A stretch of DNA of 60,584 bases, filler included, from Bipalium vagum (Eukaryota): the NCBI GenBank assembly GCA_037834085.1. It is 3 parts of 3 records of this genome, joined end to end, with 100 filler letters (N's around TTAATTAATTAA, not from the genome) between each part and the next. Parts side by side here need not be neighbours in the genome. Positions count along the whole stretch, not along the records: positions 1 to 24,786 come from JBBMKC010198720.1; 2 more parts are not named here. One strand, given 5' to 3'. Numbering within the stretch: the stretch's first letter is position 1; each line of letters opens with the position of its first letter. The notes below the pieces were generated by a model, which was not told the DNA's origin, searched no databases, and saw nothing but the letters and a program-made list of their open reading frames with translations. This document shows positions 3,172-46,686 of the stretch, piece after piece. Made by a program: the position numbers and the translations under genes.

Positions 3172-6100
3172 TCAGATATGCGAACCTTCCAAATAAACTT
3201 GAACAGCCATTATATCACCTGTTGAAATTGTCTGAGTAGCTACGGTTGTTGTCTCATTGCATTGATGAGAGTGATTACTTGTTTCTAATGAACTCTGTGA
3301 ACCGGATGTATTTGGAACAGAATTCATTACTCCCGGTAAACTGCTTGAATTACTCATACATTCTGTTGAAGACTGTGTTGGACTAGGAACAGTTGTGACA
3401 GAATAATCTTCTATATCGAGTTCATTAGAATGTTCCTCCCAATAGCTGTTATTATCTTCTGAATCAACTTTAGATAACTGAAGAATCTCTGCAAGTTCCT
3501 CGTCTATATCATGATAACTGTCAATAATATGTCGTTGTTCAGATAATATGCTATTGCAACAGGACAATGAATCGTTATCACCAATCAGTACATTATAAGA
3601 CTTTGAAGGAGCGTATAATAAATCTCCACAAAATCTTTGAACCATATCTTTATCAGATTCCTTCCAAACTTGAGTTGCTCGCCATTTTGCTCTAGATCGT
3701 TTTGGAGCAAGAATAGCATTGAAATATATACATTCTCCAATCTAAGTAAAATGAAAATATACACTAGGTAATTTAAATAAAAATAATTTAAATATAGCCA
3801 GTCAGGTAATGAAGATAGAGAAAATTATTAAGATTTATTAGGCTGATGCAAAAATAATGGTCGTTTTTCAATTTATTAGTTAAAATTTTTTCTCTCACCA
3901 TTTTCAAAATAAATTTTATATATAATATCAAAGCGCGTTTTCTGCTTAATAATCAAGTATTTGTTTAAATGCATTAATTTATTTAAATTTGTTAATCACT
4001 TTAGAAATGCTTTTAAAAATCATACATCTGTTCAGAATAAGTCATTACGTGCTTATATAATTTTGTTTTTCAAATATTTTTTTCTGAGCAATATCCTAAT
4101 CCGCCTTTAAACTTGTAATAAATATAAATATAATATTGAAAACTTCAAATATTTAAAAAAGTGTAATTTTATAATAATTTATAAAAAAATTCGGTAAATC
4201 ATATTCGAAAAATTCACAACAGATCTTCTGAGTTTTCAAAATTGTGTGGAACGATAAATACCAAATCTCTTATTGATTATTATTTTGATAGTATTAAAAT
4301 TCAATTTTTATAACATCAACATAACTGACTTTCTCATTGATTTTATTGTACTGAGTTTTGGGTTAATATCCTTTTTTAACAATTATTTTTGTTAACTAAA
4401 ATATACAAAAATTTAAGTAATAGGCGCACTCCTAATATATATTACATTGTAATATAATTATCTAATTTCAATAAATTAAGATAAACAGCTGAATTTATAT
4501 TCTTTGCACTTGTAGAAAAACTTTTTTATGGATAATGTGCAATTTCATAGAATTTTTATTAAACATGAATTCGAAATGATTGTTATCAATATTTTTTAGT
4601 CATAAATGAAATTATTCCATGGGAAATAAATTAAACAGGCAAGTCAATGCAGATAAAATGCATTTTATTAATATTTTTTGGTGAAATAGAAAAGGAAAGT
4701 TTTTAATCATAAATGGAATAAATTATAAATAATTAAAATTGAACATTGAAAAACATTAAGAAAAATAAGCTGATATTAAACAAAGGATAAGAAAATCTTT
4801 ATTTACCCGATTTCTTATTTTATATTATTAAATAGTGTATAGTACAACAATTAAGTTTTTTAATTGTTAATCTGAAATGTAATTAAAACAAAATTCATAC
4901 GAAAATTTTAATTAATTCAAAAATATTTTCCTCCAATTTCAATAGATTTGTCACAGCGAAAAATGTACTTGAAAGCTGTTTCAGTACGCTTTGCATGATA
5001 TAGTCTACTGCACGTATCTAAACTGTTTTGAGCGATCAAATGTCATAAAAATCTTTCCTTTAACATCATTTTCATTTAATCAAACAGAAAGCCACAGTGC
5101 CCAGTAAGGTGAAAATTAAGCATAATCCAAAACAGACTTTATGTTAAATTAAAGACTGATAAAAATTATTGATTTTTGATTAGGTCCAGTATTATATCTC
5201 ATTTCCTACGGCAGACCTTAATGAAGAATTTTTCGAATTATCTTTTCGTGGCGATTGAAAATTCATTTTCAACCGCTCACACCAACTGTTTGTGACAAGT
5301 TTTCATCCATTTTCGAATTTTTCACAGGTCCATGACGGGTTTCCTGCACTTTTATAATCTTCAAGTTATTATTTTCTCTTAAAGTTTACACCATCTGAAA
5401 CATCTATTCTAAATAAGCACTGGTTCTTAAAACTTATTTTTACCAATCAAAAAAAGTTTCAGGTCTTTTTTTGTGCTTCATCCATTTTGAAGAACAATAA
5501 AAATGTTACAAATCAATTTTCGAACCCATAATTTTAATTAACATTCAGAATGAAATTTTGATAAGTGAAACAGTCAAATTCAATCAAAAAAACAAGCGGC
5601 ATAATGGATAGTAGTACATTTAAATGAAATCAAAGGAAATCTTATTTTTATTTGTTGTGCGGAGGAGAGTTTTAAATCAAAGTATTATAAAAAAATAATA
5701 CAAAAATTAAAAGACTGGATGGATACTACTATGATGTACGAGTGGCTAATAGATTGCTCCGTAGAAGAGTATATGGCTTTTTTCGGACTAAGAAACTTCT
5801 TTTAATAATAGATTCGATGCTTCCATATCACACAGGAAGTAAAGAGAAAAAGTTGTGCGGAAAACACATTTTCTGTAATTATCCCAGGAGGCCTTACCAA
5901 GATGCTGCAACTTTTGGATGTAGCTGTAAACAATACATTCAAGGCCAATCTTCGAAAGATTTGCGAATTCTGGATGACCACAGGGAACCATAGTTTTACC
6001 AAAATAGGAAGAATGCGACGTACAAAACTAACAGATGTTGCTGAATAAGTATTTCAAACTTGGAAAGACGTTCAGTCTTCCCATATAATAAATGGCTTTA

Positions 6101-8694
6101 GAAAAGTAGTAATTGTACAACAGTTATCTATCACCAACGAAAATGAAAGTAATACTTCTTTTGAAATCGATTCTTCATATAATTCTGATGTTGACAATGA
6201 GGATTTCCAGATTTAACCTTATAAATCCATGTTTTGTTTTATGAAGACAATTTTTTGGGAAATTTTGTACTTATTTTATGTTATTTTATATTGATTTATT
6301 ATAAGATATTAAAAAAAATTTCCTGTGGCTTATGTTAAAAAAAATTTTTCAGCACCAAAATTTTGAAATACGGTCTATATATATTATTATACCTTATATT
6401 TAGCGAAATATTTGAAGTAGTCAAAATGATATTTATTTTGCAGATTATACGTTTTATCTTTCATTGGATTCCTTAATACATTAATATAGACGATAAAGAA
6501 ATTACTTTGAAATGCCGCTGCAAATCATCGAGATGCTTGAATATGGATTTATCAAAGAAAACGTGTTCATGTTGACCCAAGTCCACTATTCCCCAAAGTT
6601 TAGTAACATGGTAAACAGTTCCACGTTGATTAATGATGGTACGAACTCCAGTCTTTGTCGATAAATCGTCGTTAACCACTATACTTATTTCATCTGTATC
6701 CAAACTTGTAACTTGTCCGTTTTTGTCAACATTGAAAAGAGTTGACTGTTTTCGAATAAACTCTTCCAATTCAATTTTAGTCCACCCAATACAGTTTCTT
6801 ACTGAAGAAGGTGCTTGCGCCAAATAAAGAAATAGATGATTGATATTGATTTTCGCATTTGTCTTTCGTCTGATAATAAATTTGAGAAACATAGCCGCCT
6901 GAAATTCGCGACTGTCTATTGCTACTGTAGGTTTCGAATTAGAGGTGAATTTTATATCTCTGTTATTTTCTGATGAGCTTAGAATCATGGATGATGGTCG
7001 ACCTTGCTTAGTCGTTCGTCTTGGATTTACGATAACAGAACGCGGTCTCAATTTCGAACTTTTTGGAAGGCAAATCGATGAAAAGTTGTCTCGCAGACCA
7101 ACCAGATCGCCTTGGATCTGGAAAACATGAGGATGCTTTTGAATAAATTTTCTGAAAAGCGCCTGAGGACCGACCACTCGACGAATGGATTCGTTTGCTT
7201 GTGACAAATGACCAGCCAAGCTCTTGATTGATACCCAATGATCATCACGTTTAGCCAAATGAGACTGGAAATATTTAACAGCTTCTGTTTCTTGGGTAAT
7301 ATCTATAGGCCGACTTATTCGATAATTCTCACTTTCTGAATTCGACACATTTCCGTTCTCAATATCAATGCTACTAGAACCGTCTGTGACATCTATAGGA
7401 GATATAAGATTTCCATCAATTTGAAATAAGGATGGGTATTTTTCCAGGAAAAACCTTAGGCCTTCGATATCCAACCCACATGCTTCCTGCATATCTTTGC
7501 TAACGGTCTCTGAAAATATTCTGCTTCCCAAATCTTCAATAGACATTGAATTTTCTGAATTCATAAGAACTTCTAACAAAAACAACATTGCTCTATGATT
7601 TGAATCATTCATCATTTTATACAGACTGGCCTCTTTCAGATAATTCATGCAGGAATCCACGTCTAAAAAACAATCGATTAATAAAAAAATAGCAAGTAGG
7701 GTTTAATGGTACACCATTATTTCACTTAATGAAGTTGTCCATTTTCTTAAATTATGTAATTATAGTTTATGGAATGAACATTATTATTCTTACTGACGAA
7801 TACAGTGGGTCTCACATTTAACTAAGACAAAATACAGTTCCTCATTGAATTGAAATAGGAAATATAAAAATAGTAATTGAATTAATTTTAAGACAGTTTA
7901 CACTATTTCTCACAAGGGACAATCAAACGCAAGATGAACTAAAATTCCAACTTGACATTGGAAACGATCATAAAATTGTCGATTGGGAGTACTTTCAAAT
8001 CATGGTCGAGATTTTTTTTACGAAATTCAGAAAAGATTGGGTTATTAACCATCGAAACGAAAATGGTCTCGCGGTTCCATTATTGCCATTCGATTCATAT
8101 ACAACAACAACTCGAAGCATGTAGCAAAAATTGAAACAGGTCGACAAATTCAATTTATGTTCCGTCAAAAGATTTCCATTATACAAAAACTGCATAAGTG
8201 TCAATTTTAAAAAATTGAATTAGTAAATATCGATAATTCCGTGACGATTAACAACTGATTCAAAAATGCTAAGCGATTCAAGAGAATAACGTTATTTATG
8301 AATCCATTTAGTAATATAAAGCAAAAGTAATCCCTTTTATAAACAATATCAATTGGATAAAGTTAATTTTTAGAATTTAATGATAATTGCATCAAGATTT
8401 GGTACTCACTTAACATCGTTAACTGATTCGAAAAGGTAACGTTATCTGAATTAAATTAGTAAAATAAAATACTATTTCTTATTATAAACAAAGAAATATT
8501 AAATCTCCTCAAATCCACTTTCCCCTTCAAATATAATCGAAAATCCATTCCACAGAAAAATTATTTTATCCACATTCCCAAATTGATGGGATGTTTAAGC
8601 AAAAGATATTTGTTAATAAAAAAATATTGAATGATTTATTACATATTAATAACTTACCTGAAATGTTTGGCACAAAATTCAGAGACTCCATCAT
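3172..8694 (-). CDS. Egalitarian-like RNA-transport adaptor (3 Egl-type winged-helix repeats + cold-shock/OB-like domain + LC8-binding TQT tail; no 3'-5' exonuclease domain), ~587 aa
   Basis: Exons 8694-8658, 7662-6506 and 3741-3172 join in frame (1764 nt) through CAG|GTAAGT...TTTTAG|AC and AAA|GTAATT...CTTAG|ATT. The segments AMLFLLEVLM...GLRFFLEKYPSLFQIDG and EAVKYFQ...IKSLAGHLSQA resemble the Drosophila Egalitarian N-terminal repeats. WGIVDLGQHEHVFFD...FNAILAPKRSRAKWRATQVW spans intron 2. The C-terminus ATQTISTGDI resembles the Egl dynein-light-chain site. The short first exon is less certain than exons 2-3. Confidence 0.85.
4960..5485 (-). mobile_element. Highly decayed mariner-like remnant in intron 2 of the Egl-like gene
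   Basis: Fragmentary similarity to a mariner transposase N-terminus with many stops. A mariner-TIR-like string, TATTAGGCTGATGCAAAAATAATGGTCGTTTTT, lies in the same intron at ~3836-3868. Confidence 0.3.
5690..6374 (+). mobile_element. pogo-family DDE_1 transposase C-terminal remnant (intronic)
   Basis: Frameshifted translation LLIIDS...IIPGGLTKMLQLLDVAVNNTFKANLRKICEFWMTTGNHSFTKIGRMRR...INGFRK matches the pogo IPGGLT-LQPLDV-VN-FK motif. It has an acidic tail and a pogo-like end (AAATACGGT) near 6366-6374. Confidence 0.8.
7801..8200 (+). mobile_element. Decayed Tc1/mariner-superfamily 5' fragment in intron 1
   Basis: TA-CAGTGGG terminus at 7801 followed by a disrupted HTH-like segment. No catalytic motif was recovered. 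Confidence 0.3.
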
Positions 8695-10867: not shown

Positions 10868-12031
10868 TCAATATTTTGTTTGCAGACCTTTGGATGCAAT
10901 AACTGCCTGTACACGTCGTGACATGGATTCCACCAAGTTGCGGTTTCCTCTGAAGTGATAAGCTGCCAAGCATTATTTAACTCATTAGATAGTTACTCTA
11001 GACTGCTTGGTTTCTTTCTTTGTACCTTCCTAAAAAGAATATTTCATTGGAGTTCAATGGGGTTTAAGTGTGGGCTTTGGGCTGGCCAATCCGAAACTTC
11101 AAAATGTGTGGGAGCAAGAAAGTCAGTGACCAGTTTAGCCTTATGACTTGGAGCATTGTCGTTCTGAAAGATACATGGTTTATTACGGCCAAATAACTAT
11201 TATCGATGGCAACATTTGATTCTTTAGAATACCTATATACCAATGGTGATTCATAAACTCGGTGCAGTGGAAGAGGCGACCAACTCCAACCAAGGACATG
11301 CACCCCACCACCATGAGTTAGCATCCTCCAAATTTCCTTGTTGGATTGATACATAGTGGTAAGTACTTTTCATTTTTCTTTTTCGTACATAGATGCGTTT
11401 ATCTCCACAAAATAATTTGAATGAGCTCTCATCACTTCAAAGAATGTGTTTCCATTGGTCTACCGTCCATGACAAGTGGTCAAGAGCGAAAGCTAACATC
11501 TTCTTGCGATTACTCTCTGACAACAATAGCTTTCTGACAGTCACACAGCCACGCAATCTATACTTACGGAGAATATTTTTCACTGTTGTTGCTGTTACAG
11601 AAACTCCATAGTAATTGATAAATTCCATTTTTAGTTCAGAGGATGTTAGACGCCGATTTTTTAGACTTGTGCGGACTAAGGCACGTTCTTCTTTAATCGA
11701 ATATTTTTTTGGTCTACCTGATCTAACTTTGTCTTTCACATAACCTTTTTCACGTACTTTCTTCATAATTATAGTGACTGTTCTGTCAGCAACTTTGAGT
11801 TTTTTCTAAATTTGACGATAGCTTATTCCAACTTCAGCCATCATCATCTCTCTTGTACGTTCATCAATAATTAATTTATGCACTCCTGTCATTTATTAGA
11901 AAATCTAAAATAGACTAGTTCAGACAAATTCTTTTATAAAAATAATCATTAATCATCAAAAACTAATGATATGCATTATGTAGTAATATTATATAGTATT
12001 ATGTGGATGTCGACATGACTGTTCAGCACTG
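10868..12031 (-). mobile_element. Tc1 (DD34E) transposon, defective
   Basis: Transposase remnant 11892-10868 with RSGRPKK, SDESSF (preceded by W->stop), QNDNAPSH...DWPAQSPHLNPIE and C-terminal VIASKGLQTKY. The 5' terminus is CAGTG with a flanking TA at 12031; the other TIR was not found. Confidence 0.92.
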
Positions 12032-13793: not shown

Positions 13794-16665
13794 TATAATA
13801 AATTAATTATTTTATATAAGAATCAATATAATCAAAATAAAGGTAGATAACCATAATTATTATTATATTAGGTTGACCAAATATAAAAGTAATTCGTTAT
13901 CAAAAACAATATTTATTTCAAAAACAACAATAAAAAAATCCAAAAGATATTCTCAGTTATTGACAATGACTATATTATCTTGTTGCAAAGAATGGATGTC
14001 ATTCTTATTAGTCTTCTGGCTGTGATTTCAAGAACTGTGACATCTGTATTTTGATATATCACTTTCTAAAGATTTATCAATTCAAAATTAAATCAATCTT
14101 AGGTAAATAATGTATCAAATTACTTGACTAAAACAGCTTGATCATATAAATAAATATTTTATAATAGAAAAAGATTTAAGACGAAAATGCTTGACGACTT
14201 TTATATTAATATTTTGTTAACATAATAATTAGAATAATTCAGTTTGTGATAATATTTTTTATTTTGATTTTTTTGAGGTTCAGTTGCATCTACTAATACG
14301 GATTATCGTTTATGCGTATTCTACATCTTTACACTAGTTATTAGAGATGGATCGACATAATTTGTGTCTGAAAGGATATGTACTCATTAAAATTATTATT
14401 TTTTTAACAGGATACTAAAGATATTTATTTTTTGCAAAATGTAAGTGAATTAAATTATTAAAATAATAGCATAAGTGTTACCTCACTGGACATATTTTAC
14501 TCAGTTAATAGTCAAATTGATTATATTATTATTCTATGTCAACATATACTTGCATTTTACCACTCTAGTCGATATAAAGACTATTACTGTAATATTAAAA
14601 TCAAAGGTGTATACCATCTACCTTTTTTCTAACAATTAGAAAAATAAATAACAGTAAAAAATCAACTTTAATCTCACTTTCTCTTGATTTTTTTATGGAT
14701 ATTAACTAATCGTCTTTGAATTTCTTCAAATTTACTGAGTTTGTTTGTAACATACATGAAAAATGACAATGCACCTGTTCTGCTGCCCGTTCATTCATTA
14801 AAACAAGGTTTCTGGAAATGTCATTAAAAAACTCATAACGTTGTCTTCTTCTGAAACTGTTTGTATACCTTTTAGTGTTTTTAACTTTATCATTTTTTCT
14901 GGAAAATTCTTTTCTTTCAAAATTTTTTATTTTAATCCACAGTTTTAATTTAATATAAACAATAATATTAATATTCTAATATCAACCAGCAACACATAAT
15001 CTGACTAACTCTCTTTTATTATGGTTAGATTTTATTGTTAACACGAGTCAATCAAAATCACGCTTTAATAAACTTTATTGAACATTTATTCAAAATCACA
15101 CAATAAAAAAATTCAGCTATAGTCACGTAACACATTACGATTTAATATTTAATGTTTCTCTGATTCGCACTGGCTATATGCTGATACTCCGCCAATAAAA
15201 TATTCACCATTTCCAATTCACACTTCTATCATTTCTTGACCAAGCAAATAATAATGATAAGAAATACAGTATTGGTTTTATTTTGAAAGTAAATTTGATA
15301 TTATTCAAGTTTAATTCTTTTTATTTTTTTCATTATTACTAACACGATTAGAATTAATTTGTGCAGGAAAAAAATGTGGTAGAACTGAATAAACAAAACA
15401 TTTATAATTTTTTAATATTTTCAATGTAAGTTGAATTAAATGATAATTATATATATAATGTTCTCTAACTATTTATTTATGTGAAGTTATTTTACCTTGA
15501 ATAGATTTGATGTTTTTAATATTCCACCCAGATATATTTGTTATATTTAAAATTTAATTTCTTCCGTATATTTATTTAACTTTGAAAGTACAAAATTTAC
15601 ATTTTGGTTTTTTTCATTCTCATTATTTCACTTGGCTTTCACAAAAGTAAAAGTATTATACTTATCACTTTATTTATATTTTGAAGTTAATATTATTTAA
15701 AATTTAAAGTTTTTATTTATTTAAAAAATATTTTTTATTCGTTTTATTTTGTCTAGATAATTGATAACCATTTTTTCTTTTAGAATTTTCTTAATTCATT
15801 TTTACATTTTTCAAAGGAATTTATTTTATTATTATATTTATTTTCGCTTAACTTGATAAATCTTTTTTCTTTATAATTTTTGCTTTTATTAAAATATATA
15901 TTGCAGAATTATTTTGTAATTTATTAAAAAAATTTTAAATATCGTTTTCATTTTTTTCATTGTTTTATAGATTTTAAATGAGACAATAAAACTGTTTGTG
16001 TTTTAAACTCTTCTTCACAGATCTCTGAACCTATTTTCACAATTGACCATATATAGAATGCAATGATTTATGTCGTTCCATAAATATTTTGTGTATATTT
16101 ATTTTTTGATACGTATATGAGTGGTTTTGGTAACTAAATAGTAAAAATAAACCACTTAATCCCCATCATGTAAATAATTGAAATCTATTAGTTAAAAACT
16201 GTTGTAATTATCTAGAATCCTTTATGTACGTCCTTTATGCTGTAATTCCTATAAAAAGATCATAACTCAGAAATAAAATAATGTTAATCAAATCGCATTA
16301 TTGGGTTACTAATCTTGAAATTTATCCACAAGGGTATGAAAGTTGAATGTTAAAATTTTAAAAAGAATCGCTAAGGTTTATGAATTTTCTTGGTTGGTCA
16401 TTTTTCGATATTAAAATTAAATTTGACACTGGTCATATTTTATATATAAAATAAAATATAATTTTATTACTATTTCTTATCTTCATAATTACAAATTTAA
16501 CAACGATCTATTAAATTTTTTAAATGGATCAAAATACTATTTAGTTTTATGGAATTTGATTTTGTTTTAATATATCATTTTATAATTTATTATAATTCTA
16601 GCATTCAAATAACTTTTAAAAGTAGGAATTTTGATTAATGAATAAAATTTTATTCATCTTTAAAA

Positions 16666-17635
16666 ATGTATATAAATAAAGAAGAAATGCAATACATAAT
16701 GAAATTTTATTTCTTGAAAGGTAAAAATGTTACACAAGTAACTAAAAAGATTATTACTATTTATGGAACGGATACTGTTTCGGATAGAACAGTCCGTGAA
16801 TGGTTCGCTAAATTTCGTTCCGAAAATTTTGATGTCAAAGACGCACCTCGTTCTAGCCGACCAAAATGTGAAAAAGTTGATAAAATAATTAGGAAGGTTG
16901 AAGAAGACAGGAATATAAGCAGCCACGAAATAGCTCAGGAATTGGGGATTCATTATCAAACAGTTTTAAATCATTTGGAGAAATGTGGATATACAAAGAA
17001 ACTGGATGTATGGATACCACATAATTTGACTGAAAAGAATTTGAAAGACCGAATTTTAATATGCCAAACATGATCGATCCATTTTTAAAACGTCTTATTA
17101 CATGTGACGAAAAATGGATCAAATACGATAATAACATACGAAAAAGGTTTTGAACAAAATGTGGTATGATCTCACAAACTGTGGCGAAACCAAAAATGAC
17201 TTCAAGGAAGTTAATGCTCTTTGTCTGGTGGGATTACAAGGGAATGTTCCATTAAGAATTACTCCAACCAGGACAAAAAATAAACTCAGTTATCTACTGT
17301 GAACAGTTGACAAGAGTACACCAGGAAATTGTAAGAAAGCATCCCGAATTAATCAATAGGGAAGGAGTTGTGTTTTTTCATGAAAACGCCAGATCACATG
17401 TATCTTTCATGACGCAACAAAAATTGAGGGATTTTGATTGGGAAATTTTGTTGCATCCTTATATAGTCCTGATATAGCACCGTCAGACTATCATTTTTTT
17501 CGCTCAGTGCAAAACTCCCTTAATAGTGTAAAATTAAATTCAAAAGAGGATTGCGAAAAACACTTCTCACTTTTTTACCAAAAAAATCAAAAAAGTTTTA
17601 GTTTTACATTGTCAATCAAAATGATAATTATGTAA
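16666..17635 (+). mobile_element. mariner (DD34D) transposase pseudogene, near full length
   Basis: Motifs RSSRP, WIPHNL, ITCDEKWIKYDN, VWWDYKG, FHENARSH and YSPDIAPSDYHFFRS, with several stops and frameshifts. Confidence 0.95.
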
Positions 17636-21329: not shown

Positions 21330-21574
21330 TTTAAATTTTTTTTTTAATTTTACAAATATTGAATAAACCCAATTTTGTCTTGATATTTATTAAGCATTTT
21401 ATTATTATAAAAATGACTGAAAAATGGTATTGTGAAATTTGTGAAAAAATATTCCAAAAATATAATAAATCAAATCATTTAATACAGACGTACATTTTAA
21501 AAAAGTACTAATGAAAAAAGTATTAATAAAAGTACTATTCAAAAAATAAAAGAAAGATATCCAAAATATTTTAT

Positions 21575-21938
21575 AAAAAACAGGCGACGACATTCAATCA
21601 ACAATTACAAATAATATATATTTTAAATAAATTTACAACAGGGAAATATCCAGGAGCATTACATTTAAAATCTTTAAATCCTTTTAATAAAACAAACGAG
21701 GTCGCAAATTTCTGTGGGCCAGGGTCACATATTGATAAAAGATTAGAGAACTATAATGAAATAATAGAAAATTACAATGAAACTGGAAAACTAGATATAC
21801 CTCTAATTTCGAAACCTGATTCAAATCCAATAAATAGAGTTGATCAAGCTGCAATCAAACATGATGTAAAATATATTTCCAAAGATTTAAAAGATAGACG
21901 TATTGCTGATGTTGACATGACATCTAAACGAAGATAGA
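21575..21938 (+). pseudogene. Parvovirus-VP1-type phospholipase A2 domain protein (Polinton PLA2X-like)
   Basis: GKYPGALHL...NFCGPGSHIDKRL...NPINRVDQAAIKHDVKY...DRRIAD shows the GPG Ca-loop plus the HD and D catalytic motifs. The start codon and C-terminus are disrupted. Confidence 0.85.
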
Positions 21939-22087
21939 TATAACAAATCTGTTAGAGCATTGTTATGGTAAATAGACTATGCTCTGTTCAACGATGTCAT
22001 CATCTTTTTAGTAGGATACTTCCTTCATTATGAAAATAAGTTATTTGATAATACTAATTAAAACAATATTAAATTTTTTCTATAAAA

Positions 22088-22682
22088 ATGGGTGAACTAA
22101 TTGAACAAACATTACAAAACATTATTGATGAGAAAAAACTAATATATATAGCTTTCAATGGAGAAAAATATTATCTATCTAAAAAATAATTAATGAACTT
22201 AGTGATAAAATTGCTGAAAAAGAAAGAGGAGTACTTCCATCAATTCAAATTCTTGGAGCAATCTTTGCAGGTTTAGGTGCAGCTGGTAAAGTTGAAGGTG
22301 GAGTTGCAACAAATGTTCAAAAAGCAAAAAAATAATAAAATACAGATTTAGAAAAAAAGAAATTAGAAATGGAAATTGATAAACTCAGCAAAGCTAATAG
22401 AACCGTAGGTGAACTGAAACCGATTGAAGCTCTCAACACTAAAGGTGTACCAAAAGAAGTATCAACTGGACCTGGACTTTATTATGACCCTCCTAAAGGT
22501 GGTATACTTATGTATAATGCATATTTTGGGAAAGGATTAAGAGATTCAATTTTAAATAGTTTAGAATATGATAATTTAGATAAATCTGATAAAAAAATGA
22601 AAAGAATTATTTTAAAAAATCGAGTAAGGATAAAATTACGATTGTAAAACAAGGAAATGGTTTATACTTTGACAGGGCGTAG
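22088..22682 (+). pseudogene. Polinton Gly-rich core/membrane-active protein remnant
   Basis: GVLPSIQILGAIFAGLGAAGKVEGGVA hydrophobic Gly/Ala helix followed by repeated GxGL(Y) motifs (GPGLYY, GKGL, GNGLY), with frameshifts. Confidence 0.65.
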
Positions 22683-22782
22683 GCCTTGACAACTTTGTTG
22701 AACCCCTACAAAAAGGAGTAAAAATATTTTTCTAAATTTTATTTTAAAAATTATTTTAAATTTATTTGAATTCTTCTGTAAA

Positions 22783-23190
22783 TATGAAATTAATACAACT
22801 ACAAATTTTGATTTAATAGATATAGCTAAAGACTTAGAAATCCCCTTAAAGATTTTAATGAAAGATGAGATTATTGAAAAAAGGATAAAATATGAAAAAC
22901 CTTTAATTATTAATTATCAAAATTTAAATCCAAATGGAATACACTGGGTTGCATATACAACGGTTATTACTTTGACTTTTATGGTTTACCATCACTTGAA
23001 GATTTAGAAAAACATGTTAAAGAGTACAACAAATTTGATGTGCAAAGCATGAGGACTTCGTCCGTTTTTCAAATTGAAACTGATAATAAATATTGTGAAC
23101 CATTAACTTTATATGTTTTATACAAATTATTTAATAATATTGATTTTTCTAAAATAATATTTGAGATAAAAGACTTCATCGTTACGCTCT
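22783..23190 (+). pseudogene. Adenain-like cysteine maturation protease
   Basis: TNFDLIDIAKDLEI...MKDE...IIN...GIHWVAY / YYFDFYG...Q...KYCEPLTLYVL. The His-Asp-Cys residues are in adenain order, with a 1-nt frameshift after HWVAY. Confidence 0.85.
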
Positions 23191-23283
23191 TAGAGGTAAT
23201 AAAAATTTTTAAAAATAAATGTGAAAGAGGTCGTTAAAACTAAAAAAATAATTTTACATATCTTAAAATTTTTTATTTTTATA

Positions 23284-25453: not shown

Positions 25454-26977
25454 CAATGCCGTCCATATGTTTAGGGCCACCCTGTAACTATCGAAATAAT
25501 TGTAGATTACGAATTATATTAAAAGTTTTATGATTTGAACTATGTTAATTTAGAAATATGTTTATATTATGTTTAAAACTCATTAAAAATTATTTTAAAA
25601 AATTATAGTATAATTATTAAAATAGATTTGCTATGTTAATGCGTTTTTTTAATTTTGATGTCATTTAAATATATAAACTATTTTAAGGATAAATTAAATT
25701 TTTATGTAAAATCTATATGTACAACATTTTGCTAATGCTTAAGTAATATATTTTATTAATTTTAGAAATTCTTTTGTTAAATATGGCTAAGATATCCATA
25801 GATATTCGGAAACTGGTGATTAAGAAATTGAAAGAGGGTTTGTCCCAGAGGAGATTTATAAACGAACTCAATATTTCAAGGAATATTATTCAACATATGA
25901 TACGGAAGCTGAAACAACATGAAACATTGAGAAACTTAAGTAAAAGTGATCGTAGACCGAAAAATACAGAAAGATCACTTATTCGGATGTCAAAGAAAAA
26001 TCCCCAGAAAACAGCACGTGATCTTCTTATCAATTGGAAAACAAGCCAAACTAACTCACTTAGTATTGTAAACCGTATTCTGAGAAAGTATGGCTTATCC
26101 GGACGAATTGCAGCGAAGAAACCATATTTAAAAGAGCGACATATAAAAAATCGTTTAAAGTAGTGCAGAGATTATAGCAAACTGCTTCCTTCTTTTTGGA
26201 ATGAGGTAATTTTTTCTGATGAAAGTCGCATAGACCTGTTCTCTAGAAGAAGACAATACGTTCGCGGACCGCGAGGATCAAGGTGTAGTCTAAAATATAC
26301 CACGAAAACGGTGAAATTCGGAGGTAATAGTATCATGGTTTGGGGCTCAATTCAAGAAGATGGCACCAGAGCTGGTAAAGTGTCCGGATCGGATGAATTC
26401 TGATGCCTACAAGGATGTATTGAAGAGAGGATTGCAACAAGACGGAGTTCCATGCTACAAATCAAAATTGGTCTTCTTTTTTGGACATGAAAAAAATCTG
26501 CGTAATCAGTGATTGGCCTGCACAATCGCCAGATTTGAATATAATTGAGCCTTTATGTGTTGACCTAAAAGCCAGAGTTCATAGCTGTAGGCCGAAAAAT
26601 ATTGAGGCACTGCGGAAGAATTTGGACAATCAGTGGGCAATGATGCAAGAGGTCATTAAAAATAAAGGTATGAGTACAAGGTACTGAATTCGAGTATCGC
26701 GATTGTTCATGAGGTTGACTTTTATTATTATGTGTTTGATCATTTGAAATGTAAATAAAAAATATTTTATTGACGTTTTAGTCTTGTATTCAAAATGACT
26801 TAAAAATTGATGTTTCTGAACAAATCGGTTTTTCTACATTTACAAAAATTTTACTTTGGGAATTTTTGATTGGAAACATGTACCAACATATTCTATCATA
26901 TATTTAAATATAGACAGTATTAAAGTACTTATAATTATATAATTTCATCATTTTATCTAAACATATGGACGGCATTG
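25454..26977 (+). mobile_element. Tc1 element with both TIRs and TA target duplication; transposase defective
   Basis: Perfect 21-bp TIR CAATGCCGTCCATATGTTTAG at both ends, flanked by TA. The transposase (25783-26687) has IFSDESR, MVWGSI, QQDG and DWPAQSPDLNIIE, with a stop at 26161 and deletions. Confidence 0.95.
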
Positions 26978-30229: not shown

Positions 30230-33200
30230 ATGATTCAATTTCTTGGATCAAGCTTTCGAAAAGTTATTTTATATTAATATCTATTCCCGTATAATATTGA
30301 TTTTATTACACAATAGTCATTGCTCCATCAAATAAAAACTTCATCGCGATGTTTTGCGTCGGTATGCTACCTACATTAATTTTATGTGAAAACGATAATT
30401 AAGCTTTAATAGGTTCCAATGAGCCGGTTAGAACCGAAAACCCACCTTAATTACAAAAAACTTATTGATAATTTAGAAATTGTGAAGAAAAGGTAGCCTA
30501 CATAATCAAGAAAGATAATTTATATTTGCTTACAGACTGAATCGACCTTTGACGTTGTCTGAAAAAATACTCTATAGTCACTTGGATGATCCAAAAAATC
30601 AAGTTTCTACTATTAATTTTATATTTTTAATTTTTTAAATCTAGGATGTGGTTCGCGGAGAAAGTTACTTACGATTGCGACCTGATCGAGTTGCAATGCA
30701 AGACGCTACGGCTCAAATGGCAATGTTACAATTTATAAGCAGTGGTCTTCCCACAGTTGCTGTGCCGTCCACAATTCATTGTGACCACTTGATAGAGGCG
30801 CGTGATGGTGGAGTTGAAGATCTTAAACGTGCTCAAGACACCAATAAAGAAGTTTACGATTTTCTTTCGACAGCAAGTGCAAAGTTTGGACTGGGATTCT
30901 GGCGTCCAGGAAGTGGGATCATTCATCAAGTAAGTGGAATATTCATAATGGATCGCTTTAAAAATCAAACTTCGTCACAATTTTTCTAATCTAAACATCG
31001 GTAAAAACAGATTATCATCGAAAATTATGGATTCCCCGGTGTACTATTGATCGGTACTGACTCTCATACTCCAAACGGCGGTGGATTGGGTGGTTTGTGT
31101 ATTGGAGTCGGTGGTGCAGATGCTGTGGACGTAATGGCTGACATACCGTGGGAACTGAAGTGTCCAAAGGTCATTGGAGTCCACCTGAAAGGTTCTCTAT
31201 CCGGTTGGACAAGTAGCAAAGACGTTATTCTGAAAGTGGCCGATATTCTAACTGTAAAGGGTGGTACCGGTGCTATTGTGGAATATTTCGGATCGGGAGT
31301 CGATTCTATCACGTGTACGGGAATGGGAACCATTTGCAATATGGGTGCTGAAATAGGTGCAACTACCAGTGTGTTCCCCTTCAACAAACGAATGTCTGAG
31401 TATTTGGATGCTACAAATCGTGCGGATATTGGTAAAGAGGCTACAAAGTACAAGGTTAATAAGTATATTGATTTTTTTCTCTAAAAATTATAGTTAAGCC
31501 GATAATCACTCAAAATTATCGTGTTGATTTTATTAAACAAATTAATTTTTATCGATTATTTTGTCCTATTATAAATTAGCATATAATTATTATTTCTGCT
31601 CATATCATTATTATTTTTATTATTCTTTTTTTATTATGATTGATTTATTGGTATTATTTCAGGATGTTCTCCTGATAGCTGACAAAAATTGTAAATATGA
31701 TCAGGTCATAGAAATTGACCTGGACACGTTGGAACCTCACATAAATGGACCGTTCACACCCGACCTGGCTCATCCAATCTCTCAAATCGGGAAACGCGCC
31801 AAAGAGTATGGTTGGCCAGAAAAAATATCGGTCGGTTTGATTGGGTCGTGCACAAATTCGTCCTATGAGGACATGAGTCGAGCCGCTTCGATTGCTAAGC
31901 AGGCTGTTGATCGGGGACTGAAATCAAAATGTCCTTTCACCATTACGCCCGGAAGCGAACAGATTAGAGCGACAATCGTTCGGGACGGTCAGGCTGAGAT
32001 TCTGAGTAAATTTGGAGGCACGGTTCTGGCAAACGCTTGCGGCCCATGTATTGGTCAATGGGACCGTAAAGTAAGAGACTTTATCCTTTATGTAAATTAT
32101 CACCTTTATTAATCAATTATTTTCTAAACCATTGGTTTTGATTAGTGCAATTATATTATTTCTTTGTTGATTGGTATTGTTGTTTTATTTTTTAAAAATT
32201 AATATCTATGTATTGATTGATCTATGAGTGAGTATACGATTGACAAAAAATCGTTATTGCTTTATTTATCTTTAGTAATTATTCAGGTAATTAATTTAGC
32301 CACTTGACAACTAGACTGGTTCATTCTTAATTATTTGTCTATGAGAATCAATAATTGTATTGAAAATCTGTATTAAATTATTAACTAAATCAATATCTGA
32401 GTAGATTATGGATCTGGTTTAAAATTAGTAATATTTATTTCACTTAAATTGCTTTCAATTGTCTTTTTAATATTATTATGTTTCGTTGATCTTTATAGTC
32501 AAATTATTGGTCGATATATTATTGATATTGAGTGGAAATTCTCAAATAATTTCAACAAAATTTGATTCTTTAAATTTATTATGTTAAGGATCACACATAA
32601 TTAGTCCCAGAATAACATTTTTATTATTTGATGATATTAAAATGTTTAATAATTATCCTAAAATACCTAGAAAAAGTCTTCTTTTTTCATAGAAAATGTA
32701 TTGACTTATTTTATCATGAGAAAATTAAGTTTCGTTTTCTTTTCTTCATCATCTTTAAGTTTTTATAAACTACATTATATATCCACACTTATGATTGATA
32801 ATTAAGATTGAAAGAATTTTAAAAAATCGATTTTAATATTGAAATTTATAAATAAGAAACTTCATTATCATAAATTTCTTTTATTAACATATTTAAATTA
32901 TCAACTGAAATTGACTAATTATTAAAAATCAATTTTTAAAATAAAAGTATTTGACAAAATTAAAGGTTATTAATAAAAGTTGTTTGTTATCATAAATAAA
33001 TTGACTAATAAAGATTTTACGTTTACATTTGAATTTAATATTTTAAACTATTCTTGAAGTATTTTCCATTTTAAAGCATTGATTTACTCAGTGATGAAAT
33101 ACATGTCTGGTTGAGCTTTGTGCACTCACGGATCTGTTGTTATTTTGACCTATTTTATAAAATCTTTAGCTTAAGATCAATATTTTCGTTGTGATCCTCT

Positions 33201-36200
33201 TATTAAAGTTATTCTTAATTCACTATTCAATTCAGCTTAATAATTAGTGATAGATTTTACCTATTATTCAAAGAATCCTTTATATTTTACTTTGATTGCA
33301 TTTTCATCGATATAGAATTTTTTCTTGAAGAGCAAATGATTTTCATTTGCTCATCGGAACAGTATAAGTTTTTACTCTTTCTAAAAATTACATGATTGCC
33401 TAGTTTTTAGAATTTCTTCAGTATTCATGATTACGTGGTATGCCGAATAAGTACTGAGCCTATTGTATAGAAAGGTTAATGTAAATTAAAATATATTATG
33501 ATTATCAGGTAAATCGCGTTTTTTAAAATGTCTTTAGAAAATGTGCAATAACGAAGGGTCATTCGTTTCCTCTATTTGAAGAAAAAAGTCGAGAAGGAAT
33601 TCAAAAGAAATTATATGATGTTTACTGTGAACAAAGTCCTTTATGGGCTATAACAAAAAGATGGTACAATGAATCTAAAGCTGGAAGAACCCACATGGTA
33701 AACGTAGAAAAACCAGGAGGGCAAAGCGAAATCAGCGAGAAAATAACGGAAAACCTACATGAAATTATACAAAATGAAAGAAGAATCACAACAAGAGAGC
33801 TCATTGTGAGTTTAAATGTTAGCAAAGGTACTATTCAGTCGTTATTGGAAAGTAGTGGCATCAGAAAGTTGTGCTCACGATTCATGCCACGTTTTCTAAA
33901 TGGTGATATGCAAGCTTCTGATTTCTTTTGTTCAAACACCTCAAGCGGGAACTAAGAGATAGACAATTTTCATCAAAAGATGATTTGCAGAATATTGTCA
34001 CTGATTATCTGAACGAAAAATCTTCCGATTTCTTCAAAAATGCTTTCTCGTAACTTATCACTCGCTGGAAAAAATTTGTTGACGTTTCTGGAAACTTTAT
34101 ATTATGGTACATATTCATTGTTTATAATACAACATTTTTTGTGATCGTTTCTTGTTTTCTAACATAGGCTCATTAATTATTGAGCACACCACGTAAGTTA
34201 ATAATTATAATTGATATCACATATCACTTATTTATAATAAGAATGAATATGGATAATATTTTTTTAGTTTTGAATAATAAATATATTTTTCACTGGTTTT
34301 CATGTCAATTTTGAGCCCTAGATATGAATTCAAGTTCCATCAATAAAACAAAGGCAAATCTTTATTTATTTTCCTTTCATTTGAGATTTTAAACAATACT
34401 TATTTCCATGAAATTTTCCCAGGACGTGAAAATGGGTGAAATGAATACTATTGTTACATCTTACAATCGGAATTTTACCGGAAGAAATGATGCCAATCCT
34501 GCCACACATGCTTTCGTCACCAGTCCGGATATTGTTACGGCTTTGGTTATTGCAGGCAATCTCAATTTCAACCCACTTGTCGATGAACTCACTGATGTCA
34601 ATGGAAAAAAGTTCAAATTGTCTCCGCCAGTTGGAGAGGCCTTGCCTACCAAGGGCTTTGATCCAGGAAGTAATACTTACCAACAACCTCCTGGTGATTC
34701 GGGAAAAATCAATGTGAAAGTCGATCCAAAAAGTACTAGATTACAGCTTCTTGAACCGTTTCAAAAATGGGACGGGCGTGATATTGTAGATATGCCTATT
34801 TTGATAAAAATAAAAGGAAAATGTACAACGGATCACATCAGTGCAGCTGGGAAATGGCTGAAATTTCGAGGACATTTGGATAATATTTCGAACAATATGT
34901 TTATTGGGTGAGTCAAATATGACTATTTTCCTTTTGGTTTACATTCTTGACATAAGCTTATTGATATTTTGGTTTTACGAGTTCTGTCTTTTAAGTTTTG
35001 CATGTGTGCATACATAAAATATTATTATGTAGAACTAACGTTTATATTTAGTTACTAAGAAGTATAATTTTTATTTAAATATTTCAGTCTTGGTTTACAG
35101 TGACTATTTAAAAAACATAATCAATGAAAAAAATTGAATTCACGAGAGATATAGACAATTATAAAATTTGTATATAAAATTCACAATTTATTATGAAGTA
35201 GAAGCTTGTTGAAACTTGAAAAGTGAATAAAAGTCAACAAAACATATCTAAGCTCTCTTCCAATCGTTGATATTCTCAAACTAGTTACAGTTTCTGTATG
35301 TCTTTCTTATCTCTTTAAGAGAGAAAAGTTGAAACTGTGACTGATGTGGTCACAATGTATGATCAAAGATCGAGAACATTTTTATATTTTTATTATATAT
35401 ATTCCAATTGTGGATATCAAGATAAATATCCACTGTTATGATCTTTTCCTATAAATATTGATAATATTAATAATAAAAGAATGACAGTTATTTAAATTTT
35501 TGTGAAATTTTGAAATTATCTAAAAATATTGGTTAGAAATTTTGGGAAAAAAATTTATTTCTTAACAAATCGAATTATGATTAATATCAATTTTAAGGTT
35601 TACTGACTTTGAAAAGACAGAATATCATAACAATATTGAGAAACTGGTCGTTATTTTTATGTTTAAAAACTAGAAAAAATTCTTAATTGAACTTTAAATT
35701 CAATTCTCATTAAATAACAATTTTATTAATTTTTTGTGGTACTTTTAAATTGAATTGATCACGTTTTAGTTTACTTGGTAACTTCCTTTTTTTGTTAACA
35801 AAGCGAGTTTAAAGTACAATTTCATAATATATGATATGAAGCCTGGTTGTTATTCTGTTTTTATCATTTGAATAAGTAAAAAATCTGTTGCTTTTTAAAA
35901 ATCAATTACAGACTTCTATATAATATTCAAAGACAACTGGTCAGCCTACTTCAGTGCTATGGGGTGTGTTTCACATTAATTCCTTTGAAAAATGCAGGGA
36001 ACATAACACAAGACTGTTCAATTTTTCTTTTCTATCAGCCATAATTTCCACATTGGTATTTCTATCTTTCCAAACAATTTAAATAAGATCCTAGGTCTCT
36101 TTAGAAATTAATTATTACTTGTCTGAGAGATGGTTGCTTCTGAGATCCGTATCGTATAAAAAAGTCAATTCATTAGTTGAATGTGTTGGACAACAAAAAT

Positions 36201-37677: not shown

Positions 37678-40600
37678 ATGAAGCTGTTACTTTGGTTTAT
37701 GATTTTCATTATTGTTGTTAAAAGTAAGTGGTTTTTGGGTTTTTTATTAATCATGTTTTGGAATATTGTAAGTTGTACATAACGGAAAAGCTGAAAAGAA
37801 ACTGCTGAGATTTTTGTTCGATCCAAAAAGACCTGATGCTCATAATATATTGGAAAGACCCATAAGTGATGACAAAAAACCACTCTATGTTTATATTTTA
37901 TTATATCTAATGCAGATTATAGATGTGGTAAGCTAACATTGGTGACTAAAATTTCAGTTGAGACTTTGAAGTTTAGGATGAGAAAAATCAAATTCTTCAT
38001 ACAAATGTTTGGTTGGATTTGGTTTGTTTTGTGTTTTTTAAAAATACTGAAATAATGATAAATAATTTTATAACCACAATCTTCTAGAAATGGAGTGATT
38101 ATCACTTTGTATGGAATCCTTCGATGTACAACAACATTAGTACCATCGTTATACCAGCCAATCGCTTATGGAGACCAGATATATTGCTCTATAATAGGTT
38201 TATAGTCTATTACTTATTTATTAGTCAAAGAATTATATAGCGCAGATGAAAGATTTGATGCAACTTTCCCAGTTAATGTTATAGTTAAACACGATGGTAA
38301 AATGCAAATGGTACCTCCTGGAATGTTTAAGTCAACATGTAAAATAAATATAGAATGGTATCCATTTGATACTCAAAAATGCATTATGAAATTTGGTAGC
38401 TGGACATATGAAGGGAGCCTTATAGATCTATTGTTTTATTGTGAAAATATGACAAATTGTAACAATACATATGGACAAGGAAATGCAGCTGAAATGATGG
38501 AAAACGGAGAATGGGATGTCTTAAGTAAACATCTATAAAATTATATTATTTATTTATTTCTGATTAGGTTTCAAGGCTGTCAGAAGTGTTATACAATATC
38601 CATGTTGTCCCGAAACATATATAGATATTACATATTTTCTTGAAATCAAACGAAGGACTTTATACTACACTTTTAACCTTATTGTTCCGTGCATAATTAT
38701 ATCAACTATGGCTTTATTAGGATTTCTGATACCACCAGATGCTGGAGAAAAAATATCGTTAGGTAATTCTTTTAACAGTTTTACATTTTCAAAAACACTA
38801 AATATAAAATATTTTAATATAATATAATTTTAATAAAATTACAGTGTAAATTAAGTGAATATCTGTGACGCAAATCCGTGCATGACTGGAATTCGTTGTG
38901 TAGTATTGATAAATTATTTTAAGATAATTACTGAACAATCTAACTGGTTATAAATGCCAAATTTATTATAGACAAGCCCTTAAGTTATTCTATCTATCTA
39001 TTCTTGTTTTAACTGGATATGATAAATTCAATATAATATTTTAAAAATATATAATATTATTACATTATATATAATAATATTTAAAATAATTTTAAAATAT
39101 TTCGTTGAATATTTTTTTAGTAATTTAAGGGATTTTTTTAAAAAAAATTATAGTTATACCAAAACTACTATTGTCAGTGATTATTTTTATAATATGATTG
39201 AATTTTTAAAGCACAATTGAAATATTTTCCGAAAATTGTGTTTAAATATTATTCAAAGGATATTGAATTATGATAGAAATTTGCATTTTACAGTGCTTAG
39301 TACGTGAAAAAAGATTAAAAGAGAATTTTATCACTTTAGTTGAATTAAGGAAATTGAGATAAATTTTAATGAAAAATTATTTGTAAGAAAAGGAAAGGTT
39401 AAGAGTAGTGCAACGAAAAGAGATATTCATTTAAATATATATTCATTATTCATTGCTGAATTAAAACTTAAAATCTAATCTCAATACAATCTTTATTTGA
39501 AAATAAAGAGACTGGTCTGGACAAATAGTAAAATAACATTTATATTGTATTAAAGATTTAACAAGTTTCAATATTTTTTTAAAGGATTATTTACTAAAAA
39601 ATAAAAATAACTTTCTTGGACTAAAACTAAAAAATTTTATTTTAATATATTATTTATTTAAAATTATTTATTATAATAAAAAAAATAAAATTTCTTCTAT
39701 GTCAAATTATATCAAATCATTTTTACAAAACACAGTGACTATTATAATGTCCTCCAATCAAATTTTATTATTTTCCTTTAACCGAAAAATAAAATCTAAA
39801 TTAAACCAAACAATCTAACTGTTTAAAATATAATTTTTTAATCGATATTATGAGATTCATTATTGATTTTTTGCATCTTTCTTCAAAGGTGTCACTATTC
39901 TACTATCTCTGACTGTGTTTTTGATGATGGTCGCCGAGAGAATGCCTCCGACGAGCGAAGCAATTCCACTAATAGGTTGAAATGTTTATTAGATTATAAT
40001 TATTACCGTTTCTCGTAGGAAAATATTTTACCTGCGTCATGATAGTTTGTTCGTTGTCCCTTGTTTTTACAGTATTGGTGCTAAATTTTCATCACAGAAG
40101 TTCAGATTCGATAGATGTTCCGGAATCGGTATATTTTGAAAATATTACTTTTTATTGTCATTTTTCGATTTTTTGAAATTATTTTATATATTTAACTGGA
40201 CAATATATAATTTTTGAAAGAACCGAAAGCAATTTTAAATTAATGATTTTATTAAAAATTTACAGAATTAAAAAATATTTTCAGTTACGAAGAATTGTTA
40301 ATGTTTGTTTGGCTCGTCTGCTTTTTATGAAACCTAGAAACAAGATATCTTCAGAACTATCTGATTCGGAACAATCCCCTTCGAATCTTGATCAATATAA
40401 ACGAAATGCCATATATAATCGTGCTTTTCAAAGTGGATCAATGAAAGGCTCTAAAAGTCTGTTGGCTAATGTTCTTGATATGGAAAGTGAAATTTGGGCG
40501 AGAGCTGCTCGATCTGTAAGCTTATCTTATCCTCATTCATCAGTAAATGCAAAATCTCAGCATTTTGAATCCGTAACCAGTAATGGTGGAATAATGGGAG

Positions 40601-40818
40601 AAGGTTTGCTCCCAGAAGGTCGTTCACAAATTAAAGAAATTCTCTCTCACTTGAGACAAGTGACAAGCAAATTAGCTGAAACAGAAATTCAAGAATTGCG
40701 AGCTAACGAATGGAAATTTGCTGCACGTGTAGTCGATAGATTTTGTTTAGTTATATTCAGTATTATTACTATTATTTCTTCAGCAGCTATACTTTTGCAT
40801 GAAGTTTTTAACCGTTAA
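37678..40818 (+). CDS. Nicotinic acetylcholine receptor alpha subunit, alpha7/ACR-16-like, cation-selective, 9 exons, ~521 aa
   Basis: Exons 37678-37723, 37773-37927, 37977-38021, 38088-38197, 38241-38524, 38568-38762, 39889-39975, 40019-40128 and 40285-40818 (1566 nt in frame). It has a signal peptide, [10 protein letters not shown], Cys-loop [15 protein letters not shown], loop B GSWTY, vicinal cysteines YPCCPETY, M2 [17 protein letters not shown] and [11 protein letters not shown] before M4. Confidence 0.96.
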
Positions 40819-41845: not shown

Positions 41846-42861
41846 TTAGGTTGTCCAGTATGAAATTGCGGATTTTTTATATTAATTTTCAAATTAAAGT
41901 TAATCACAAACGTTAACAATAAATTGTTTGTTTTGTATATATCAAATTAAAGAGTAATTTTCAAACCTTAATATAAATATAAGTAAGCATATTAATTTAA
42001 AGTAAGTTTTTTTATCGTTCTTTACCAGGCATGGTTGATCAAAAAATTCGAGTACGCATATTATACGAGTTCAAATTTGACCACAATCCATCAGAAGCAA
42101 CTCGAAACATTAATGCTGCATGGGGTGAAGGTAGTATAAGCGAAAAATCAACACAGATATGGTTCAAAAAATTTCGAGACGGGGACCTAAGTCTCCATAA
42201 CCAAGACCGCGGAAGACCCAAGTCTCTCTTAAATGAAGTCCAATTGAAGTCAGCTGTCGAAGAAAATACTCGAACAAATGTGAGAGAACTTGCTCAAGAT
42301 CCTAATGTGTCCAAATCAACAATTTCCACCCATCTAAAAGAGATTGGTAAGGTTAAGAAGCTTGATTCGTGGATTCCCCATCATTTAAAAGAAAATCAAC
42401 AAAAATATCGATTGTAAATCTGTTCGTCATTAATAAATCGGAACCAAATTGATCCCTTTTTGTCTCGTATTATAACATGCGATGAAAAGACAATTGTGTA
42501 CAACAATCGTAGACGATCAGCGCAATGGTTAAATGCTGATGAAAAGCCGAAAACCATGTCTAAACCAAGCCTTCACCCCAAGAAGACTATGATAACTGTG
42601 TAGTGGTCTGAGGATAGCTTAATACATTACAGTTTCTTGAATTCAAATCAGGTGAAACAATTACCATACAGTCATACTGTCAAGAAATTGAGGCTATGTA
42701 CACAAAGCTGATTCAAAATCAACCAGATCTTGTAAACCGAAAGGGACTAGCCTTCAGGATAATGCAAGACCACATGTTTCTAACGTGACCTTACAAAAAT
42801 TACATGACTTACAGTACGAAGTTTTGCCTCATCCAGCTTATTTCCCAGATCTGTCACCTAC
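41846..42861 (+). mobile_element. mariner (DD34D) element, defective, truncated by gap
   Basis: 5' TIR TA-TTAGGTTGTCCAGTATGAAATTGCGGATTTT. The transposase starts at 42031 and has GRP, WIPHHL, ITCDEK, QDNARPH and HPAYFPDLSPT, with stops. Confidence 0.93.
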
Positions 42862-45934: not shown

Positions 45935-46686
45935 CTACTCAGATGGACGGTTATCATAAAGGATACATTTTTCATCACACGTAATTATTCTGCGCAAAAA
46001 TGGATTAATTTTATTTCTTTGAAACATTTTTGAGCAGATATCATACTTCATTTGTTGTTGATAATCAGTTAATAAATGCGGAATCCACTTATTTAACTTT
46101 TTAACCTTGCCAATTTCCTTTAGGTGTTGAGAAACAGTTGAAATAGATACTGATAATTGCTTGGATAAATTTCTTACTGTATTCTGTGGGTTTGATTCAA
46201 TAATTGTCTTCAAATCATCATTGTTCACTGAAGTTTTTCGCACACGACCCTCTGCATCACTGAGATCAAATTTTCCAAGACGGAATTTGGCAAACCACCA
46301 GCGGGTAGTTGATTCTGCTACATAACCATCTCCGAAAGCTCTTTTTATATTTCTGGTTGCATCTGCCACAGAATTTCCAAGTTTAAATTCGTAGAGATAT
46401 ATTGCTCTAATTTGCTGGTTTGTTAACATTTCTAAAACTGTGCCAAAATATGGTTTTATTTAAAGCAGTAAAACAAATTAATATTAATTATTGTTTTAGT
46501 TTTTATATATGATTAAACAAAATTTTACGCTTTTCCAGTGGGCACCCTGTAGAATATGAATCCTTATCATCTAAGCATCAATTTGGAATATCATATGATG
46601 TCATTCATAATACTTATTTTATATACAATAAAATTATCGAAAGTTGCCATCATCGAAAACGCTAATTTATTTCCGAACAATCTAAT
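45935..46686 (-). mobile_element. mariner 5' portion (TIR + transposase to first catalytic D)
   Basis: ORF MLTNQQIRAIYLYEFKLG...WIPHLL...IITCDEKCILYDN. A TIR-like TATATTAGATTGTTCGGAAATAAATTAGCG reads on the minus strand from ~46689. Confidence 0.9.

Follow-up and report, generated by a model that had tools for sequence, protein, structure and literature searches.

A probable planarian egal-1 orthologue from Bipalium vagum with a predicted OB-fold module at the position of the Egalitarian exonuclease-like domain

Egalitarian (Egl) is a well-studied mRNA transport adaptor, and in the cryo-electron microscopy structure of the Drosophila complex (PDB 9RVY) its Egl domain 1 (ED1) binds BicD, ED1 and ED2 reach the RNA minor grooves through His31, Cys35, Ser127, and Gln128, and the pocket is closed by ExoHD-XAD, while ED3 is dispensable (PMC13186709). 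A crystal structure preprint places the BicD site within residues 1-79 and reports that the exonuclease region alone binds RNA (10.1101/2025.08.03.668247). Planarians have three egal genes, and the regeneration-polarity gene egal-1 of Schmidtea mediterranea (Miliard et al., PMC12579938) encodes three N-terminal modules similar to those of fly Egl, a spiralian-conserved central region of 67-71 amino acids, and a dynein-light-chain motif at the C-terminus; in the available portion of that paper none of the three S. mediterranea genes has a clear exonuclease domain, the central fold is left unnamed, and the biochemistry of Egal-1 is stated as open. Here, we describe a gene on the minus strand at positions 3172-8694 of a 60,584-nucleotide stretch of Bipalium vagum DNA (the window; three joined parts of assembly GCA_037834085.1, with positions 1 to 24,786 from JBBMKC010198720.1), which is likely the orthologue of egal-1 and for whose central module we predict an S1/cold-shock-type OB fold.

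The gene model, computed from the DNA of the window, has three exons that join into a frame of 587 amino acids with one stop. Exon 1 (8658..8694, 37 nt) begins with the ATG at 8694 and contributes 12 codons plus one base before a GT donor, and the joined N-terminus resembles, by eye, those of planarian egal-1 proteins. Intron 1 (7663..8657, 995 nt, GT..AG, phase 1) is followed by exon 2 (6506..7662, 1157 nt), which encodes the three winged helices together with the beginning of the OB module, while intron 2 (3742..6505, 2764 nt, GT..AG, phase 0) interrupts that module, and exon 3 (3172..3741, 570 nt including the TGA stop) encodes its end, a Ser-rich tail modelled at low confidence, and a TQT motif. 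The exon 2/3 junction is collinear with the relative P0028 (73.7% identity over 346 columns), and the exon 1/2 junction falls within the stretch that resembles the N-termini of three planarian egal-1 proteins in Table S3 of PMC12579938. Contigs from one sequencing run, which is not on record as RNA, crossed both introns in a DNA-like manner and without sequence differences; this run may come from the source sample and is thus not independent. We regard the gene as real, intact, and conserved, with a splice model predicted from DNA, in agreement with the three exons and the stop at 3172 proposed in a preliminary description of the locus. Intron 2 also contains a decayed DDE_1 transposase remnant at 5812-6045 (plus strand, Pfam E 1.3e-05).

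S. mediterranea Egal-1 (dd_8302) is listed at 587 amino acids in Table S3 of PMC12579938, the same length as the window protein, and both have an N-terminal extension, three winged helices, a conserved central region, and a C-terminal motif; the two N-termini also match by eye. P0028 agrees by eye with the portion of egal-1 printed in the same table, and across ED3 and the OB module the window protein is identical to P0028 at 117/141 positions, compared to 72/139 for the egal-2-like P0003, indicating that the window gene is most likely egal-1. These egal-1 and egal-2-like labels were set by eye from Table S3, the computed comparison covered egal-1 and egal-2-like proteins, and the separation of egal-1 from egal-2 and egal-3 is by similarity and not by a tree. 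All of the features of the spiralian Egalitarian-like form (egal-1/2/3) were found, namely three winged helices, a central region of about 70 amino acids, and a C-terminal QT motif. The gene, like its layout without an exonuclease domain, is therefore already in print (PMC12579938), and the window gene adds a member to a published family. The preliminary description had presented the protein as an Egalitarian paralogue serving as an alternative dynein-mRNA adaptor; it is instead the ordinary spiralian form, and the suggestion of an undiscovered alternative pathway was overstated.

The exonuclease-like domain is absent, as had been proposed. An exonuclease profile built from nine exonuclease-bearing relatives found nothing in the window protein and nothing at E<1 among the 1822 pieces of a six-frame translation of the window, and tblastn with 247 fetched proteins against the introns and flanks gave 0 matches. 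No hidden exonuclease exon was found in intron 2 or elsewhere in the window, and the protein lacks the hallmark of ecdysozoan Egl, a DEDDy exonuclease-like ExoHD with XAD.

In that place, the window protein has a module spanning residues 352-428, of which 352-398 are encoded at 6506..6646 and the last two strands (399-426) at 3658..3741, both on the minus strand. The preliminary description had noted here a beta-rich, cold-shock/OB-like block with the motifs GTVYHV, KLWGIVD, HVFFD, FNAIL, and AKWRATQVW, which lie at residues 359, 367, 379, 405, and 416, and the fold comparison, made on a predicted model of P0028 as a stand-in, bore this out. The predicted five-stranded barrel superposes on S1 and cold-shock domains (CSDs) with root-mean-square deviations of 2.1-3.7 over 65-85 residues in the leading rows, which include NusA, PNPase, Rrp4, Lin28, Unr/CSDE1, and the S1-like domain of DBC1, with a YB-1 domain also among the OB matches. 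RNA-binding domains of S1 or CSD type make up most of the top matches. Identities are only 6-31%, and because the rows lie within about 1 Z of one another the subtype, S1 or CSD, is not assigned. The module shares the five-stranded barrel with these domains and differs from them in having no Pfam family above the cut-off: PF00313, the canonical cold-shock domain, was found in 0/26 proteins at E<=10, S1-like PF14444 in one of 26 at E 0.11, and the RNP1 consensus was matched partially, at 3/7 positions. Sequence and profile searches of the PDB returned fly Egl as the sole real match and no OB proteins, and their HipB and S18 rows were discarded as noise. Residues G360, H364, W369, F381, and D383 are conserved, and across 134 aligned modules Trp, Phe, His, and basic residues of the last strand are near-invariant. 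By analogy with the fly protein, the OB module likely binds RNA at the position of the exonuclease-like domain. Among the literature matches listed, none pairs Egalitarian with an OB fold, so within these searches the assignment is not in print.

The three winged helices gave three Pfam WH_Egal matches in exon 2 (E 4.5e-52) and three confident modules in the N-terminal part of the structure model; weak PORR, OST-HTH, and wHTH_TTC3 matches overlap them and added nothing. ED1 (7394..7603, minus strand) aligns with the BicD-binding region of the fly protein and is well conserved across OB-type and exonuclease-type proteins, but in the window protein it has Glu and Ser in place of the fly RNA contacts His31 and Cys35. 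In ED2 (7085..7288, minus strand) the base contacts Ser127 and Gln128 are retained; ED3 lies at 6704..6913 on the same strand. OB-type proteins as a group retain Ser127 (179/181) and Gln128 (177/181) and not His31 and Cys35, which are kept in 36/39 and 37/39 exonuclease-type proteins, respectively. This pattern suggests that ED2 likely still touches RNA, that ED1 likely does not do so in the fly manner, and that the OB module is a candidate second reader. The earlier proposal of a different RNA-recognition module needs correction, because ED1 and ED2 of the fly protein themselves bind RNA, so that the exchange concerns just half of the pocket.

Searching with exon 2 gave 134 proteins, of which 120 were listed; most are 500-670 amino acids long, and the matches listed by name include nemerteans, annelids, a brachiopod, a bryozoan, and flatworms, to which further searches added molluscs, Seison, and two acanthocephalans; the OB-type form also occurs in flukes and tapeworms. 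Among 305 proteins, a biased set that was gathered with OB-type queries throughout and that includes the window protein along with its exon pieces, profiles detected the central module in 223, the exonuclease domain in 39, and both in none. Ten of these 39 were looked up and seven had a named organism (two from a millipede and the others from a tardigrade, two nematodes, a beetle, and a mite), all ecdysozoan, so that no spiralian exonuclease-bearing Egl was found among the seven. In an unrooted tree on ED1 and ED2 (217 rows thinned to 61 at a 72% identity threshold, with some rows kept by choice), all 17 exonuclease-type rows fell on one side of a single branch with no OB-type member (FastTree 0.984; IQ-TREE UFBoot 99), and the OB side roughly tracked spiralian groups. 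Most simply, this is a single gene family whose central domain was swapped once between protostome branches, in a direction that the unrooted tree does not give. In Table S3 of PMC12579938, the Lytechinus pictus 'outgroup' protein appears by eye to start with a beta-rich region and to carry a segment resembling a winged helix before its exonuclease domain; if OB-like, the N-terminal region would be informative on the ancestral state of the central domain. Four long relatives (P0135, P0171, P0177, and P0187) carry 4 to 11 WH_Egal repeats, with neither central module found, and one has a Spore_III_AA domain.

These relationships bear directly on whether the genome also encodes a true exonuclease-bearing Egl, to which the window protein would be an additional, exonuclease-less paralogue. 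That planarians carry three egal genes (PMC12579938) leaves room for such a history, a fourth would need the whole genome to exclude, and names were looked up for only 10 of the 39 exonuclease-type proteins. We nevertheless consider it very improbable, given that all three S. mediterranea genes are described as lacking a clear exonuclease domain, that the named exonuclease-type proteins are all ecdysozoan, and that the tree sets the 17 apart as one clade, leaving the paralogue reading unsupported; a search among longer proteins also found eight relatives, none with the exonuclease family, which is weak evidence.

The C-terminal motif ATQTISTGDI (3211..3240, minus strand; residue 566) has the canonical TQT anchor of a candidate site for the dynein light chain LC8 and aligns with the fly motif. 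TQT-type motifs occurred in 159/196 complete OB-type relatives compared to 70/3920 shuffled tails, far above chance, so the QT motif noted earlier is real and conserved. TQT by itself is no guarantee of LC8 binding (PMC6607443), and fly Dlc chiefly dimerises Egl (10.1101/550277), which does not favour the accompanying suggestion that this end tethers the protein to the motor.

By analogy with the fly complex, we somewhat favour the view that the protein, with its three Egl winged helices, OB module, and TQT motif, is an LC8-dimerised RNA-cargo adaptor that docks on BicD-dynein. LC8 would bind the TQT motif and pair two chains, ED1 would dock on the BicD coiled coil, and ED2 would grip an RNA stem via its conserved Ser-Gln pair, while the OB domain would replace ExoHD-XAD and probably read single-stranded bases, in a loop or flank, via conserved aromatics, W369 and F381 among them. 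In longitudinal muscle after wounding, such an adaptor might transport or retain an RNA that prevents notum expression at wounds facing the posterior. Wound-induced expression in longitudinal muscle and a requirement for notum asymmetry are traits of egal-1 in S. mediterranea, another species. In S. mediterranea, Egal-1 follows the fibres of wounded muscle, in part together with tubulin, and also forms perinuclear foci, and loss of egal-1 resembles microtubule disruption, with microtubule drugs copying the phenotype (PMC12579938); these cell data fit transport. Weighing against transport, RNA interference of tubulin, dynein, kinesin, and dynactin did not reproduce the egal-1 defect in the same study.

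The absence of a motor phenocopy is compatible with an LC8-dimerised regulator of translation or stability that acts in cytoplasmic foci, off BicD-dynein, and resembles LIN-66 or Unr more than fly Egl. The Lin28, Unr, and YB-1 domains among the OB matches and the loss of the ED1 RNA contacts point the same way, as does the comparison with Caenorhabditis elegans LIN-66, which requires its cold-shock domain (residues 101-170 of a folded region at 101-370) and forms puncta (PMC11184513, 10.64898/2026.07.07.737059), as Egal-1 forms foci. By description and Atlas cluster, LIN-66 and the window protein both combine a cold-shock-type domain, a winged helix, and disordered parts. With the ED3 and OB part of P0006 as query, the nematode LIN-66 winged-helix cluster stood in the second row of the structure listing, with 91 residues aligned, and ranked third in the feature comparison, with a score of 0.82, both under the bars for naming; 20% of the LIN-66 (PF26288) Atlas cluster also matches WHD_Egal, and some Egal-like proteins have precomputed PF26288 matches. 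Kinship with LIN-66 is thus a lead rather than membership, the domain order differs (the CSD is N-terminal in LIN-66, whereas the OB module follows three winged helices here), and the available parts of the LIN-66 reports give no homologues outside nematodes and leave Egalitarian unmentioned; our literature searches found no paper pairing the two. Since ED1, the BicD-binding region of the fly protein, is well conserved in both types and microtubule drugs copy the egal-1 phenotype, we hold a regulator outside transport to be possible and clearly less probable than the RNA-cargo adaptor. Another possibility is that the protein couples protein cargo to BicD-dynein and that its OB module serves to bind proteins; this would fit the highest identity among the OB rows (31%, DBC1 domain 8ez6, an entry whose title concerns SIRT1 binding), the partial RNP1 match, and the acidic replacement at the ED1 contacts, and PMC12579938 leaves RNA or protein cargo open. 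It is unlikely in view of the nearly invariant base-contacting residues of ED2, the predominance of RNA-binding domains among the top fold matches, and the near-invariant aromatic, His, and basic residues of the module.

The swap would be a clean exchange of one central domain between two protostome branches, and the OB call with the map of surviving fly RNA contacts turns the way in which planarian muscle reads wound direction into a testable question. A bolder synthesis would have Egalitarian replace one half of the pocket that reads RNA when Ecdysozoa and Spiralia diverged, giving spiralians an OB-based BicD-dynein mRNA transport that reads single-stranded signals, with LIN-66 as a relative of the OB/winged-helix unit and the RNA carried in planarian muscle as the missing polarity factor upstream of notum; as a whole, we consider this doubtful.

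Elsewhere in the window, Tc1/mariner transposase relics were confirmed by Pfam at 11437-11805 (minus) and 16642-17073 (plus) and recognised by eye at 25747-26163, 33527-33955, 42001-42417, and 45935-46459. At 21530-23237 (plus), a phospholipase-A2-like open reading frame piece (PF08398, E 7e-04, under the cut-off), followed by three pieces without a Pfam match, may, as a guess, be a broken Polinton- or virus-like element. An N run (assembly gap) lies at about 53760-54000, and the plus strand carries exons of an aconitase gene at 30645-34911 (Pfam Aconitase and Aconitase_C) and of a Cys-loop ligand-gated ion channel subunit at 38206-40818.
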